Positions 41,363-49,406 of a DNA stretch of 64,000 nt are shown here, piece by piece. The notes below the pieces were generated by a model. That model was not told where the DNA came from. It searched no databases and saw only the letters and a program-made list of their open reading frames with translations. A program made the position numbers and the translations under genes. Source of the stretch: Escherichia phage vB_EcoM_SCS4. The DNA lies in the sequence record ON506924, one strand, 5' to 3'. Position 1 is the stretch's first letter. The number at the start of each line of letters is the position of its first letter.

Positions 41363-43627
41363 TCATAAATTACAGGATGAACAATCTTCAGCTTTTGGAG
41401 TTTCTATTTCATAATCATCAGTACCAGAACCATCGCGGGTATTATGATAATAGAAATTTTTTCCGCCAAAATACCAAAAATACAAAAGGTCATCAATCAT
41501 TATTGACATTGGAACCTTTCCTTTTGGAAAAATCTGCGGGTCATAGTATGTATTCGCCGAAGCTGATTGACAAACCCATTTCAGCATAATAGCTACCTGC
41601 GTAAGATAAGGTTTATTACCTTTCTTAGCTAATTTCCACGTATAATCATATAGGTCTATGTTATGCTCAATATTGGGCACGACTTGATTAAAGGAACCCT
41701 CTTTTGATTCTTTAACAGAGACTGGTCCACGTGGAGGCTCGATACCGTTTGTACTGTTAGAAACTTGGGAAGATGACTCACATGGCATAAGTGCTGATAA
41801 TGTGCTATTACGGATGCCAAAGAGCTTAAGGTCTTCCCGCAGCGACGACCAGTCACAAACGTATTTTGGAGCTGCGATTTGGTCAATCTTTTTATTGTAC
41901 CAGTCGATAGGTAATTCGCCTCGAGACCAACGAGTGTCTGAATAATATTCGCAAGGTCCTTTTTCTTTGGCGAGATTAATGGATGCTTTAATGAGTCCAT
42001 ACTGTAATCTCTCAAATAGTTCATGTGTTAAATCGTTGGCATCTTCATAAGAAGCAAAGTTACTTGCCAGCCAAGCTGCATAGTTTGTAACACCTACACC
42101 GAGGTTACGACGCTTTTTAGCTTTTTCTGCTTCAGGAACTGGATATCCTTGGTAATCCAAAAGATTATCAAGAGCACGAACTTGAACTTCTGCCAATTCA
42201 TTAATTTTATCTTGGTCTTGCCAATCAAAATTATCTAGTACGAATGCAGAGAGAGTACACAATCCAATTTCAGCATCAGGACTATTCACATCATTTGTTG
42301 GAATAGCAATTTCACAGCACAAGTTACTCTGACGAATAGGTGCCTTTTCACGAATAAACGGAGTATAGTTATTCGTATTATCAATGAACTGTACATAAAT
42401 CCTTGCTGTTCCTGAACGTTCAGTCATGAGCAATTCAAACAGTTCACGGGCTTTAATACGCTTTTTACGAATATTAGGGTCTTTTTCTGCCGCTTCGTAT
42501 AATTCACGGAAACGGTCTTGGTCTTTAAAATAAGAATAATAAAGCTCTCCACCCATTTCATGGGGACTGAACAAAGTAATGTAATCGTTCTTTCCAAAAC
42601 GTTCCATCATCAAATCATTCAGTTGAACACCATAATCCATATGACGAATGCGGTTTTCTTCTACGCCTTTGTTATTTTTCAAAACGAGAAGATTTTCAAC
42701 TTCCAAATGCCAAATAGGATAATAAGCAGTAGCAGCGCCGCCACGAATTCCACCCTGTGAACATGATTTAACTGCAGTCTGAAAATGTTTCCAAAAAGGA
42801 ATAACACCGGTATGGCGTACTTCACCCATGCCAATCTTAGAACCTTCGGCACGAATCATACCAACGTTAATACCAATTCCAGCACGTTTGGAGATATATT
42901 CAACAATTGAAGCGGAAGCCTTATTGATAGACTTCAATGAATCTCCTGCCTCAATAACAACACATGAACTAAACTGTCGAGTCGGAGTACGACAACCAGC
43001 CATAATAGGAGTTGGCAATGAAATCTGTCGAGTAGATACTGCTTCATAAAAACGGATAACATGTTTTAATCTATCAACAGGTTCGTCTTGATGCAATGCC
43101 ATTCCAATAGCCATAAATGCAAACTGTGGAGTTTCATAAATTTGACCAGTGGTTTTATCTTTAACTAAATATTTTTCTTTTAATTGCATCGCCCCGGAAT
43201 AAGTAAATTCCATATCCCGTTCGTGCTTAATTTTTGATTCTAAAAATGTAATTTCTTCTGCTGAATATTTTGACAATAATTCAGGGTCATATTTACCTTC
43301 ATTTACACAGTAAGAAATATGGTCAATAAATGAACGTGGTTCATACTGCCCATAAACATGCTTACGAAGAGCAAACATTAAACAGCGTGCAGCTACATAT
43401 TGATAATCAGGTTCTTCAACCGAAATAGAATTCGCAGCAGCCTTAATGACAATAGTCTGAATATCATCAGTTGTCATTCCATCACGGAGATAAGATTTAA
43501 TATTTTCATATAATTCATAAGGATCTACTGATGTTCCCTCAGCTGCCCAAGATAAAACTTTAATAATTTTTTGTGGGTCAAAGCTCTGAGAAACACCACT
43601 ACTTTTGATAACATTAATTAATTGCAT
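41363..43627 (-). CDS. nrdA: ribonucleotide reductase large subunit NrdA (754 aa)
   Basis: 754-aa class Ia RNR alpha-subunit sequence; same length as T4 NrdA. Confidence 0.97.
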   Translation of the reverse strand: MQLINVIKSSGVSQSFDPQKIIKVLSWAAEGTSVDPYELYENIKSYLRDGMTTDDIQTIVIKAAANSISVEEPDYQYVAARCLMFALRKHVYGQYEPRSFIDHISYCVNEGKYDPELLSKYSAEEITFLESKIKHERDMEFTYSGAMQLKEKYLVKDKTTGQIYETPQFAFMAIGMALHQDEPVDRLKHVIRFYEAVSTRQISLPTPIMAGCRTPTRQFSSCVVIEAGDSLKSINKASASIVEYISKRAGIGINVGMIRAEGSKIGMGEVRHTGVIPFWKHFQTAVKSCSQGGIRGGAATAYYPIWHLEVENLLVLKNNKGVEENRIRHMDYGVQLNDLMMERFGKNDYITLFSPHEMGGELYYSYFKDQDRFRELYEAAEKDPNIRKKRIKARELFELLMTERSGTARIYVQFIDNTNNYTPFIREKAPIRQSNLCCEIAIPTNDVNSPDAEIGLCTLSAFVLDNFDWQDQDKINELAEVQVRALDNLLDYQGYPVPEAEKAKKRRNLGVGVTNYAAWLASNFASYEDANDLTHELFERLQYGLIKASINLAKEKGPCEYYSDTRWSRGELPIDWYNKKIDQIAAPKYVCDWSSLREDLKLFGIRNSTLSALMPCESSSQVSNSTNGIEPPRGPVSVKESKEGSFNQVVPNIEHNIDLYDYTWKLAKKGNKPYLTQVAIMLKWVCQSASANTYYDPQIFPKGKVPMSIMIDDLLYFWYFGGKNFYYHNTRDGSGTDDYEIETPKAEDCSSCNL

Positions 43628-43944
43628 AAGTCCTCAACTTGAAAATCGTCTTTAAACAATCGGTTAACTATATGAGCTATTATATCACCATGACACGGCT
43701 TTGGTTTACATGTGCATCCTAGCCTCATTCCACGTAAAGGCTCTAAATGTGCTTTAGTTATTTCTCCGGATTTAATTCGACGTATAAAATCTTTTTTGAA
43801 TAATTCAATGGCAGCCTCCCGGCTGCCAGCATCTTTACCGACGTAATTTCCCCAAAATGTACCACGGTGAATATTAACATCAAAGTCGGATTTATATTTA
43901 TTCACTACCCGGCATAGACGGCCCGCGCGGTGATAATTCAGCAT
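43618..43944 (-). CDS. hypothetical protein with Cys/His cluster (108 aa; nrdA.1-like)
   Basis: ORF overlapping nrdA start; motifs FWGNYVG and [11 protein letters not shown]. Confidence 0.7.
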
Positions 43945-44173
43945 ATTGTTTTTCCGTCAAAACAGTAATATCGTAGTAACAGTCAGAAGAAGTTTTAACT
44001 GTGGAAATTTTATTATCAAAATACTCACGGGTCATTTTATGAGTATAATATTTTTTACCATAAATGATAATAGGCTGATTTGGTCCTGGAACTTCTAACT
44101 CGCTTGGGTTAGGAAGTGTAAAAAGAATGGCACCAGAAATATCTTTAAATCGTAAAATCATATATCCTCTCAA
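43898..44173 (-). CDS. hypothetical protein (91 aa; nrdA.2-like)
   Basis: ORF in T4 nrdA.2 position. Confidence 0.65.
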
Positions 44174-44184
44174 TTAAATTAAAA

Positions 44185-46061
44185 TTATACCGCCATCTTT
44201 CCTTTAATTGGCGGGTGAGATACATAGTTGTTAAGAACGAAATTATGCGGCTTTGCGAATTGACTCAACCAAAATACCTGCGATTCTGTGTTCCATTCAT
44301 CAAATTCATCTGGAAATTTTAATTGTAATTCGCATAAATCCATAGGTTCACGACGCAAAATTTCTTTACATTGTTCTACGTGATTCATATAGATATGAGT
44401 ATTACCGCCAGAAAATATCAAATCTCCAGGAATAAGATTACACATCTTAGCTACAATATGAACTAACGCAGCATATGATGCAATATTAAACGGTAGCATT
44501 ATGTTCAGATAAGGTCGTTAATCTTACCCCGGAATTATATCCAGCTGCATGTCACCATGCAGAGCAGACTATATCTCCAACTTGTTAAAGCAAGTTGTCT
44601 ATCGTTTCGAGTCACTTGACCCTACTCCCCAAAGGGATAGTCGTTAGGCATTTATGTAGAACCAATTCCATTTATCAGATTTTACACGATAAGTAACTAA
44701 TCCAGACGAAATTTTAAAATGTCTAGCTGCATCTGCTGCACATTCAAAAATAACCCCATCACATGAAATCTTTTTAATATTACTAGGCTTTTTACCTTTC
44801 ATCTTTTCTGATATTTTAGATTTAGTTATGTCTGAATGCTTATGATTAAAGAATGAATTATTTTCACCTGAACGATTTCTGCATTTACTACAAGTATAAG
44901 CAGAAGTTTGTATGCGAACACCACACTTACAAAACTTATGGGTTTCTGGATTCCAACGCCCATTTTCACTTCCATATTTACCATAAAGAGCTTTTCGGCC
45001 TTTTACGCCGAGTTTAAGCATATTTACTTTAACAGTTTCAGAGCGTTTCTTGATAATTTCTTCTTTTAATGGATGTGTAGAACATGTATCACCAAACGTT
45101 GCATCAGCAATATTGTATCCATTAATTTTAGAATTAAGCTCTTTAATCCAAAAATTTTCTCGTTCAATAATCAAATCTTTCTCATATGGAATTTCTTCCA
45201 AAATAGAACATTCAAACACATTACCATGTTTGTTAAAAGACCTCTGAAGTTTTATAGAAGAATGGCATCCTTTTTCTAAATCTTTAAAATGCCTCTTCCA
45301 TCTCTTTTCAAAATCTTTAGCACTTCCTACATATACTTTATTGTTTAAAGTATTTTTAATCTGATAAATTCCACTTTTCATAAATACCTCTTTAAATATA
45401 GAAGTATTTATTAAAGGGCAGTCCTACAATTTAGCACGGGATTGTCTACTAGAGAGGTTCCCCGTTTAGATAGATTACAAGTATAAGTCACCTTATACTC
45501 AGGCCTCAATTAACCCAAGAAAACATCTACTGAGCGTTGATACCATTGAAGGTCAAGGTATCCATTACGCACATTAAACTGATAGAACATATGACAAGGC
45601 GGTAATGCCATATATTTAAGTTCAGCTGGATTCCATGCAGAAACAATTTGACGCCTATCATTTGGCAATTTTTTAATACGATCAACAACTTCTATAATTT
45701 GGTCTACACCGCCAAAATCGCGCCATTGTTTTCCATAAATTGGACCAAGTTCACCGCTATGGTATCCTAAATCTTTTGCTTGATTTTCGTAATTTTCATC
45801 CCAGACTGTTTTGCCTTGAATTAATGAATCATGTTGAATTAATCGTAAATCATTGACATTTGTGCTTCCCGATAAAAACCATATTAGCTCAGCAATGCAA
45901 GCTTTCCAGGCGAGCTTCTTAGTTGTTACTGCAGGAAAACCTTTAGTTAAATCCCAGCGTAATTTAGTACCGAACAAAGCAATTGTTCCTGTGCCCGTTC
46001 TGTCATCGGTTTCATAGCCATTTTCAAAAATGTCTTTAATTAAATCTTGGTATTGTTTCAT
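44185..46061 (-). CDS. td: thymidylate synthase, split gene: exon 1 45513-46061, exon 2 44185-44496 (286 aa spliced)
   Basis: exon 1 ends ... QRSVDVFLG, exon 2 begins LPFNIASYAALVHIVAK; the intervening sequence begins TAATTGAGGCCTGAGTATAAGGTGAC on the minus strand, as in the T4 td intron. Confidence 0.9.
44497..45512 (-). mobile_element. group I self-splicing intron of td (1016 nt) carrying I-TevI
   Basis: boundaries placed by the exon junctions and the recalled T4 intron 5' sequence; 1016 nt equals the T4 td intron length. Confidence 0.88.
44644..45381 (-). CDS. I-TevI: intron-encoded GIY-YIG homing endonuclease I-TevI (245 aa)
   Basis: N-terminal GIY-YIG (SGIYQIKNTLNNKVYVGSA), zinc-finger and C-terminal DNA-binding regions; lies within the td intron. 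Confidence 0.95.
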   Translation of the reverse strand: MKSGIYQIKNTLNNKVYVGSAKDFEKRWKRHFKDLEKGCHSSIKLQRSFNKHGNVFECSILEEIPYEKDLIIERENFWIKELNSKINGYNIADATFGDTCSTHPLKEEIIKKRSETVKVNMLKLGVKGRKALYGKYGSENGRWNPETHKFCKCGVRIQTSAYTCSKCRNRSGENNSFFNHKHSDITKSKISEKMKGKKPSNIKKISCDGVIFECAADAARHFKISSGLVTYRVKSDKWNWFYINA

Positions 46062-46106
46062 TTAGTACCTTATATAAATTATAATACATTTTATGAAGCT
46101 AAATAA

Positions 46107-46454
46107 TCAATACGGTTTAGCATCAAATTTTCTCTCAATTTCAGGCGTGAAATATAATTCTTTACCGCGTTTGGAAAAGCGACCAATAATATGATAATTA
46201 TTCTCATCAAACGTAATATTACCAATATCCATAGCTTTCAACCAAATATCGATATTTCTATCCAGCTTTATGTCAAAATTCCAATACGGAGAACTATTAC
46301 CGAAAATACTGCAAGCGGATTCAGTGAAACAACTACTATAAATCTTGTCTTTAGGAACTACTAATTGATAGACGCCTTTAATAAACTGAGGACCCTGCCA
46401 TTTTGGTTGTTTCACGTCTTTTTCTAATAGAATAGGGTAATAATTAAAATTCAT
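46107..46454 (-). CDS. hypothetical protein (115 aa) between frd and td
   Basis: ORF with its own ATG fills the frd-td interval; in T4 these two genes overlap directly, so this is an insertion relative to T4. Confidence 0.65.
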   Translation of the reverse strand: MNFNYYPILLEKDVKQPKWQGPQFIKGVYQLVVPKDKIYSSCFTESACSIFGNSSPYWNFDIKLDRNIDIWLKAMDIGNITFDENNYHIIGRFSKRGKELYFTPEIERKFDAKPY

Positions 46455-46474
46455 ATTTTCCGCNACGTGTTATT

Positions 46475-47301
<827 letters not shown>

Positions 47302-47311
47302 ATTATTTTCC

Positions 47312-47554
47312 TTAAACAGACTTTTTCACAATTTTCCAATCAGCTTTAAACTGTTCAACGTCAGAATGGTAAATCCAGAATCCTGCGCTTTCTCCGTCTT
47401 CATAAAGAGGACATCCATCGCATTCATCTTCCCATCCCATATCACGTAAAAGATGTTCAGCTTTTTCAACAAGTTCAGAATCTTTACCGATGATATTAAA
47501 ATACCATTTACCTCTAACTTCCGAATCTTTGATGCTCTGACGTTGTAATCTCAT
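47312..47554 (-). CDS. hypothetical protein (80 aa; frd.2-like)
   Basis: ORF in T4 frd.2 position. Confidence 0.7.
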   Translation of the reverse strand: MRLQRQSIKDSEVRGKWYFNIIGKDSELVEKAEHLLRDMGWEDECDGCPLYEDGESAGFWIYHSDVEQFKADWKIVKKSV

Positions 47555-48497: not shown

Positions 48498-49406
48498 TTA
48501 AAGGTCATTCAAAAGGTCATCCAGGTCCGTGTCATCAGCACTAGATGAACTGCCAGAGCTTGAGCTCATAAAATCATCTTCAGTTTTTGTATTGAAGTCA
48601 TCAACATTGAATGCATCCAAATCATCAGCAACTTTATCAGCTTTCTTAGCAGCAGTTGCAGCGGCACCGCCCATCACAGCAGTTCCCATAACTTGACCAA
48701 ATTTAGTGCTCAGTTCTTCAAACGATTTGAATTTATCTTTAGAAGTCATTTCAGAAAGGTCAACCATTTGTTCGAACAGTTCTTTCTGGAAAGATTCATC
48801 ATCAATGTTTGGAATCGCAGATTGATTCAGGAATTTAGATTCGTCGTAGTTACTAAATCCAGAAACCTGTTTAACTTTCAGTACAAAGTTAGCACCTTCC
48901 CACGGACAAGTTACATCAACTGGAGTTTCACCCATTTCAACATCAACCGCAATCATTGCATTGATTTTATCCCAGATTTTCTTACCGAAACGGTATTTAA
49001 ATACTTTACCTTCATTTTCTGGAGCAGCTGGGTCTTTTACAACAAGAATGTTAGCCCAGTAAGAAGTTTTACGTTTAACAAGGCTGTACTCTTTATTATC
49101 AGTGTTGTACAGATCATTTTTACTGATGTATTGACATACTGGACAAGAATCGTAATCACCGTGGGTAGATGAACAGTTTTCAATATACCATTTACCATTT
49201 TTCTTGAAACCGTGATTTACAAGAATTGCGAACGGTGCTTGTTCATCATTTTTAGACGGAAGAAAACGAATTACTGCTTGACCGTTACCCGCATTGTCGA
49301 GTTTCAGTTTCCACTCGCCTTTATCTTCAGAAGAAAAACCACCTTTATTTCCAGCCAGTTTAGCCATTTGTGCAGCGAGTTCAGCAGTAGATTTACGTTT
49401 AAACAT
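48498..49406 (-). CDS. 32: single-stranded DNA-binding protein gp32 (302 aa)
   Basis: sequence [52 protein letters not shown] ... matches T4 gp32, including the acidic C-terminus. Confidence 0.97.

Follow-up and report, generated by a model that had tools for sequence, protein, structure and literature searches.

In phage T4, frd and td, the genes for dihydrofolate reductase and thymidylate synthase, overlap directly, whereas in Escherichia phage vB_EcoM_SCS4 (sequence record ON506924) they are separated by a reading frame of 115 codons. Was this frame inserted between two genes that had been adjacent, as an earlier note on this DNA had claimed, or is it the T4 arrangement that is derived, and what might the encoded protein do? 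The window studied here is the whole stretch of 64,000 nucleotides of SCS4 DNA that was analyzed, and positions refer to it unless another locus is named.

The reading frame and its neighbors

The frame belongs to the frd-td-nrd early gene cluster on the minus strand, in which gene 32, ORFs like frd.3, frd.2 and frd.1, an 81-aa ORF, frd, the 115-codon frame, td exon 1 and the td intron with I-TevI follow each other (Table 1). It begins with ATG, ends with TGA and is preceded by a moderate Shine-Dalgarno sequence, GGCGGAAAATATG. The ORF with its own start between frd and td, and the 45-bp spacer ahead of td, are therefore present as the earlier note had described them.

TABLE 1. Location of features at the SCS4 frd-td junction and of related features elsewhere
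Feature	Position	Strand	Remarks
td.1 CDS, 115 aa + stop, PHROG 1928 member	46107..46454	-	ORF list, PHROG match, T6 annotation AY262134.2, dN/dS
frd (dihydrofolate reductase, 193 aa), upstream neighbor	46475..47056	-	98-99% identical to T4T and T6 Frd
td exon 1, downstream neighbor	45510..46061	-	ATG at 46061-46059; frame stops just inside the intron
I-TevI within the td group I intron	44644-45381	-	downstream of td exon 1
frd-td.1 spacer, 20 nt	46455..46474	-	ambiguous base at 46464
td.1-td spacer, 45 nt	46062..46106	-	includes td ribosome-binding site (AAGG)
9-bp direct repeat TAAATGAAA, left copy	46473..46481	-	spans frd stop codon
9-bp direct repeat TAAATGAAA, right copy	46056..46064	-	spans td start codon
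32-nt segment TTAGCTTCATAAAATGTATTATAATTTATATA	46071..46102	-	in SCS4/T2/T6-type spacers; absent from JoYop/JQD51
TATAAAT	46073-46079	+	antisense to td
MotA-type patterns, examples	17046-17021; 44592-44568; 54006-53981		listed from high to low coordinate
Gene 32	48498-49406	-	early cluster, T-even (Tequatrovirus) segment
81-aa ORF, PHROG 3183	47056-47301	-	RB32ORF231c in T6; between frd.1 and frd
68-69-aa ORF, PHROG 9550, locus L004	1662-1868	-	
68-69-aa ORF, PHROG 9550, locus L011	4670-4879		
68-69-aa ORF, PHROG 9550, locus L008	2648-2854		
JoYop/JQD51 frd, loci L013/L014	2013-2630	-	205 aa; overlaps td.1 start

The window contains 44 ambiguous bases, among them the one in the frd-td.1 spacer and two in the frd.3-like ORF (48405 and 48407), which suggests an assembly of lower quality. 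On the other side of frd, the 81-aa ORF overlaps the frd start; in T4T its place is taken by a gap of just 71 nt. Together with the frd/td overlap of T4T this means that, in comparison with SCS4, T4 is without one ORF on each side of frd. An Rfam scan of positions 43500-47500 gave one sub-threshold chance match only. Even with E values of up to 1 allowed, the td group I intron was not reported in this segment, presumably since the I-TevI ORF breaks up the match to the model of the intron.

Pairwise comparisons by the Nei-Gojobori method with T6, T2, JoYop, JQD51 and two metagenomic relatives gave dN/dS ratios of 0.01-0.17 for the frame, at dS values of up to about 2 that reach saturation. Such ratios point to a translated protein under selection and speak, at the level of sequence, for coding where the earlier note had left room for an untranslated ORF. 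A non-functional or untranslated frame in AT-rich DNA could call on the moderate Shine-Dalgarno sequence. However, this possibility appears extremely improbable when, besides the low dN/dS over such dS values, protein motifs are kept down to 28% identity, the AlphaFold model is confident and the frame is intact in all 554 phage records found, with 80% or more of the protein matched in each. In an alignment of 44 family members with a mean identity of about 27%, residues W19, G91, K95 and G97 are invariant and Q16, G27, Y29, F93 and F102 nearly so.

td.1 is annotated in many T-even phages

The frame has existing names: td.1 in the T6 record AY262134.2, RB32ORF229c in the T6 genome and ar1_242 in AR1. 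These are the same gene as the SCS4 ORF, with the same length and position and 99% protein identity, and the only residue at which the SCS4 and T6 proteins differ is number 14, a valine in SCS4 and an alanine in T6. The protein also matched the profile of PHROG 1928 (E = 1.4e-35), with residues 4-111 aligned to positions 2-125 of 126.

In tblastn searches td.1 was found in 554 phage records. At least 362 of them encode it at 90% identity or more, including T2, T6, RB18, RB32, AR1 and HP3, and the remaining 192, all from other genera, lie below 60%. A megablast search with the junction found 536 phage records, of which 355 span the whole td.1-containing interval at 95-99% identity. A survey of T2, T6 and the RB phages, which the earlier note had proposed, thus places the gene in T2, T6, RB18 and RB32, while RB55 and RB59 are without it.

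The function given for td.1 in databases is always unknown, and a literature search by gene names, accessions, PHROG, the frd-td junction and Tequatrovirus accessory genes found nothing on it. A few records mislabel the gene as "putative dihydrofolate reductase", "glucose-1-phosphate adenylyltransferase" or "putative homing endonuclease". The first two labels were rejected, as td.1 has no DHFR_1, nucleotidyltransferase or any other Pfam or NCBIfam match; the DHFR_1 domain is carried by the neighboring frd. The third, which occurs in some BASEL phage records, was also rejected: in Pfam searches a nuclease domain was found neither in td.1 nor consistently in 44 relatives, and td.1 had no match in PDB sequence or fold searches.

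Relatives of td.1 occupy the same position in other genera

Directly after frd, relatives of td.1 with 28-46% identity are encoded in Jiaodavirus (Mineola), Kanagawavirus (Kosakonia 305), Roskildevirus (Cronus), Moonvirus (KM16, CF1) and a Klebsiella phage lineage (Clarke_MM3), and this slot is occupied by td.1 relatives in at least five other named genera of the Tevenvirinae. The same position after frd was seen in 13 IMG/VR loci, and the closest relatives outside Tequatrovirus, encoded by two metagenomic T4-like contigs (63-66% identity), again lie in it. In phages of Proteus, Morganella and Providencia, more distant members also adjoin the gene for DHFR. Frd itself is only 36-49% identical across the td.1-bearing genera, and in several of them the start and stop of td.1 overlap frd and td.

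Mapping by tblastn gave the order frd, td.1, optionally a paralog, optionally a 68-aa ORF, and td in 26 of 26 td.1-bearing loci. What appears as a second ORF in the interval is a tandem paralog of td.1, which matches the same profile and the same PHROG 1928 and lies directly beside td.1; the 144-aa ORF of Cronus matches both as well. These paralogs of Moonvirus, Kanagawavirus, Roskildevirus and Klebsiella phages, the Cronus ORF included, lie in the same frd-td interval as td.1 and share with it the motifs Q..W, HG.Y, GN and GRF.K.G....F.P. They differ from td.1 by an additional insert of about 15-25 residues with a PTI.EY motif after Q.KW and are 20-27% identical to it. None was seen in the SCS4 window or in any Tequatrovirus record.

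In about 135 Tequatrovirus/Dhakavirus records, such as fPS-90 and JS98, the junction holds the 68-aa ORF (PHROG 9550) and no other gene; in one mapped locus (L011) and in Klebsiella phages this ORF accompanies td.1 and the paralog. Relatives of this ORF with 40-43% identity are encoded by unrelated myoviruses, the Phapecoctavirus phages. On nearly identical flanks, Tequatrovirus therefore has at least three alleles of the junction: td.1 alone in the majority (SCS4, T2, T6), only the 68-aa ORF, or no gene at all, as in T4 and a few relatives. In other genera of the Tevenvirinae the interval holds one to three genes, namely td.1, the tandem paralog and the 68-aa ORF, with the latter two often following td.1, and judged by these gene contents the Tequatrovirus alleles appear as an ancestral multi-gene interval reduced in different ways. 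One protein from a Klebsiella-phage-like NCBI contig (P0012, 195 aa) is a chimera in which about 150 unrelated residues at the N-terminus are fused with the C-terminal 45 residues of a td.1 of the Mineola type, and this chimera is probably a deletion fusion.

The T4 junction has the form of a deletion product

The frd and td genes of T4T share 4 nt (ATGA) and no sequence separates them, so that the overlap which the earlier note ascribed to T4 is real and the SCS4 ORF is not found there. A 44-nt probe across this uninterrupted junction matched only 32 records. About half of these are T4 isolates, and the others are RB55, RB59, vB_EcoM_112, HY03, SG1, G28, F1, FN, JEP6, FL12, FL18 and G2133.

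In SCS4, td.1 is flanked by two copies of TAAATGAAA that are 417 bp apart. On the coding strand the left junction reads ...CAGTATATAAATGAAATAACACG... and the right junction, after td.1, ...GGTACTAAATGAAACAATACC...; removal of one repeat and the intervening DNA yields ...CAGTATATAAATGAAACAATACC..., which is the sequence of T4T. Similarly, the BLAST match in T4T spans 384 nt for a query of 801 nt, a difference of 417 nt. The flanking frd and td sequences of T4 are nested among those of td.1-bearing phages, with 96-97% identity, whereas JoYop and JQD51, which carry td.1, reach only 80-88%.

A further difference lies at the frd end of the interval. The longer frd of JoYop and JQD51 ends with TAT AAA AAT GAA ATA GCT ACT GGC GGA AAA TAT GAA TTT TAA, while SCS4, T2, T6 and T4 have one base fewer in the A-run and their Frd stops at TGA. 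The 20-nt frd-td.1 spacer and the 3' tail of the JoYop/JQD51 frd are homologous, and it is this 1-nt difference that makes the spacer non-coding. A 12-aa C-terminal tail (NEIATGGKYEF) of the JoYop and JQD51 Frd is thus lost in SCS4, T2, T6 and T4. The derived frd end is shared by T4 with SCS4, T2 and T6. The possibility that an ATG AAA TAA following frd is the remnant of a td start, left behind when DNA was inserted, was considered and rejected because this segment aligns with the 3' tail of the JoYop/JQD51 frd.

Parsimony favors the following order. A long frd overlapping td.1 would have come first. A frameshifted frd with a 20-nt spacer, as in SCS4, T2 and T6, would have been the next state, and a 417-bp deletion between the copies of TAAATGAAA would then have produced the T4 junction. 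T4 would accordingly represent a derived state, because homologs lie in the same slot in other genera, T2 and T6 are carriers, and the T4 junction is what a 417-bp deletion would yield. The repeat shows how the T4 junction could arise and by itself is no proof of direction. It is partly forced by coding, since frd ends ...TAT AAA TGA and td begins ATG AAA, and T-even genomes recombine freely; for these reasons the polarity, with td.1 as the probable ancestral state lost from T4, rests mainly on outgroup parsimony.

The opposite reading, in which a recently inserted mobile cassette of the homing-endonuclease, exclusion or anti-defense type splits an ancestral frd/td overlap, could call on the imperfect direct repeats that flank the segment (TAAATGAAA plus four of the next six nucleotides), on the polymorphism of the junction among close relatives and on the homing endonuclease label mentioned above. 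Seg and mob homing endonuclease cassettes of T-even phages are likewise present or absent at junctions of conserved genes. However, these are sporadic, whereas td.1 is syntenic across genera, with homologs in the same slot of at least five other named genera and of diverged Tequatrovirus-like phages, and the polarity of td.1 is one of loss and not of gain. The 20-nt left spacer corresponds to the JoYop/JQD51 frd tail and not to inserted DNA. The protein has no GIY-YIG, HNH, LAGLIDADG or other Pfam domain and, with 115 aa, it is too small for known Seg/Mob enzymes, being half their size or less. The description of the ORF as inserted therefore did not hold, given the homologs across genera, the T2 and T6 carriers and the 417-bp deletion signature; the insertion and endonuclease parts of this reading are largely refuted, and as a whole we judge it very improbable. 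In contrast, we have high confidence that the ORF is td.1, an already annotated T-even accessory gene, with the history of loss proposed here.

With regard to the td intron, T2 (802-1662 of locus L015, minus strand) has td.1 and an intron-less td, T4 has no td.1 but does have the intron, and T6 and SCS4 combine td.1 with the I-TevI-bearing intron. The presence of td.1 and that of the td intron are thus independent of each other.

The td.1-td spacer contains a putative middle promoter

The td.1-td spacer of JoYop and JQD51 has only 13 nt, and the spacers of the SCS4/T2/T6 type contain a further segment of 32 nt, TTAGCTTCATAAAATGTATTATAATTTATATA. Within it are a TATAAT and a sequence resembling a MotA box, TTTAGCTTCA. 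The arrangement TTTAGCTTCA-N12-TAATTT deviates by one mismatch, in the TGCTT core, from the middle-promoter consensus used, (a/t)(a/t)(a/t)TGCTT(t/c)A, 11-13 nt and TAnnnT. Perfect matches to TGCTTYA-N11-13-TANNNT occur 10 times in the window, mostly on the minus strand, compared to 2.5 expected. From its sequence, the 32-nt segment may be a putative middle promoter for td. A repeated mobile promoter cassette was also considered and rejected, as the window contains a single copy of the segment and 344 records showed one copy per genome.

The TATAAAT-like element reported earlier does exist in this spacer; it is antisense to td, however, and a consensus scan did not distinguish it from chance. 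Because ATTATAAT is palindromic, TATAAT can be read on either strand. Hexamers of this kind are frequent in this DNA with its 36% G+C, and a generic sigma-70 promoter scan found 10 sites in the region, compared to 5.3 ± 2.4 expected, with the spacer site at 9 of 12.

The td.1 product is predicted to be a small beta-barrel

The td.1 product is a mildly basic, aromatic-rich protein of 13 kDa with 16 K+R and 14 D+E residues; the family has a median pI of 8.8 and about 17% aromatic residues. AlphaFold modeling with 44 sequences (pLDDT 92.6, pTM 0.85; pLDDT 79 with 12 sequences) confidently predicts a small beta-barrel with one helix, in which strands 6-12, 27-34, 62-64, 80-82, 86-96 and 99-104 accompany a helix at residues 68-77. 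Foldseek searches of the PDB with both models gave nothing significant (best E values 0.64 and 0.18, TM ≤0.41, and ≤0.36 for the model with pLDDT 92.6). The non-significant neighbors were mostly OB-fold or SH3-like proteins, such as RPA14/32, SSB, Stn1-Ten1, CheW and the N-domains of LysRS and AspRS. Significant matches in BFVD were only uncharacterized proteins of the T4-like phages PM2, Muldoon and Cronus, with weaker ones in the Aeromonas phages phiAS5 and Ah1. Structure prediction, suggested as a check in the earlier note, thus provided a confident model and no significant PDB match.

Sequence searches gave a similar picture. A sequence-profile search of the PDB returned chance matches only (e.g., dynein and TagH, E >0.1), and when td.1 and as many as 44 relatives were compared with Pfam (E up to 10), NCBIfam and PADLOC, nothing consistent emerged, with 0 PADLOC families for four members. 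No solved anti-defense inhibitor (Acb, Tad, Gad, Ocr and others) was matched in PDB sequence or fold searches, and comparison with the Frd.2 profile indicated no relationship (hhalign probability 0.2%). The earlier view of an accessory gene without a recognizable motif is in agreement with these domain searches. Of the classes it had named, an endonuclease finds no domain in the Pfam, PDB sequence or fold searches, and for a conceivable anti-defense or exclusion function PADLOC and the PDB searches offered nothing in support.

When 1.84 billion representative proteins were searched exhaustively by HMM, no more than 41 clusters matched, almost all of them 95-139 aa long, so the family looks restricted to T4-like phages. 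Outside this size range lie two short fragments and two large repeat proteins; the latter (P0030 and P0044) were rejected as spurious accumulations over Ig-like repeats.

Possible roles of the td.1 product

Most characterized small early accessory proteins of T4 target host or defense macromolecules, and Acb1/57B and Acb2/vs.4, encoded elsewhere, are host-directed examples. The small T4 ORFs between nucleotide-metabolism genes (frd.1-3, nrdA.1/2) resemble td.1, which like them is small, patchy, phage-restricted and presumably non-essential and early-transcribed. We take td.1 to be a delayed-early gene that would be co-transcribed with frd and td, in some relatives translationally coupled to them, and its product is presumably co-expressed with Frd and Td. 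Because T4 grows without td.1, the gene should be dispensable in laboratory hosts. The product would bind a partner rather than catalyze a reaction, as its small size, the lack of a catalytic motif and the non-significant OB/SH3-like resemblance of the models suggest, and this partner might be a host or defense-related macromolecule. By analogy with the T4 proteins of known role, we propose such a host- or defense-directed binding role tentatively, and hold the explanation as a whole, comprising the identity of td.1, its loss by deletion from T4 and this role, with moderate confidence.

The position of the gene invites the main alternative interpretation, namely that td.1 encodes an optional subunit or regulator of the deoxynucleotide-synthesis machinery that binds Frd, Td or the two in complex, or else a ligand such as a folate or nucleotide, and so tunes dTMP synthesis. 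The place between frd and td is invariant across genera whose Frd proteins have diverged to 36-49% identity, the start/stop overlaps in several of them suggest translational coupling, and a pocket for a ligand could be lined by the conserved residues Q16, W19, H/K26, Y29, R92, F93 and K95. However, T4 and about 170 other records of the Tequatrovirus group do without td.1, T4 dNTP synthesis is established to work in its absence, and Pfam and PDB searches revealed no similarity to any nucleotide- or folate-binding family. As the early gene order of T4-like phages is generally conserved, synteny is weak evidence for function, and such a subunit or regulator seems unlikely. In its strongest form, PHROG 1928 would be a structurally new beta-barrel locked between the genes for DHFR and thymidylate synthase as physical partner of both enzymes, possibly channeling or regulating folate-dependent dTMP synthesis. 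This we regard as decidedly unlikely; if it were true, T4 would be a natural knockout and the tandem paralogs could possibly form a hetero-oligomer.

A small nucleic-acid-binding protein with an OB-like fold, which might bind ssDNA or RNA and regulate early expression or replication, is suggested by the structural models, as the top non-significant Foldseek neighbors of both are mostly OB-fold proteins and the order strand-strand-strand-helix-strand-strand fits an OB fold, a closed barrel of five strands whose helix lies between strands 3 and 4. The median pI and aromatic content of the family would also suit it. In size and in the order of secondary structure td.1 is comparable to OB-fold small subunits (RPA14, Ten1, RMI2, SSB), but this is a resemblance without significant match or sequence similarity and does not establish membership. 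All PDB matches have E values of 0.18 or higher and TM scores of at most 0.41, below the level of a shared fold, the net charge is only slightly positive, and no known RNA- or DNA-binding motif was found in Pfam searches, so that this identity is unlikely. The preferred reading continues to be a binding protein directed at the host or its defenses.

Implications for the T-even phages

These results correct a T4-centered bias, as T4 with its uninterrupted junction is the exception (32 records) and the carriers of td.1 are the rule (at least 362). Genes that appear as extra in comparison with T4 can be ancestral genes that T4 lost, and td.1 would be a clean case of gene loss, resolved to the base, in which recombination between 9-bp repeats probably gave rise to the ATGA overlap of frd and td known from textbooks. 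In itself, td.1, which hundreds of genomes have annotated, is an accessory gene of the ordinary kind and one among many uncharacterized ones of the T-even phages. Together with its paralogs it forms what appears to be a phage-restricted family with a confidently predicted fold and no solved structural relative. T4 as a natural null and T2 and T6 as natural carriers are ready-made strains for studying the function of td.1.
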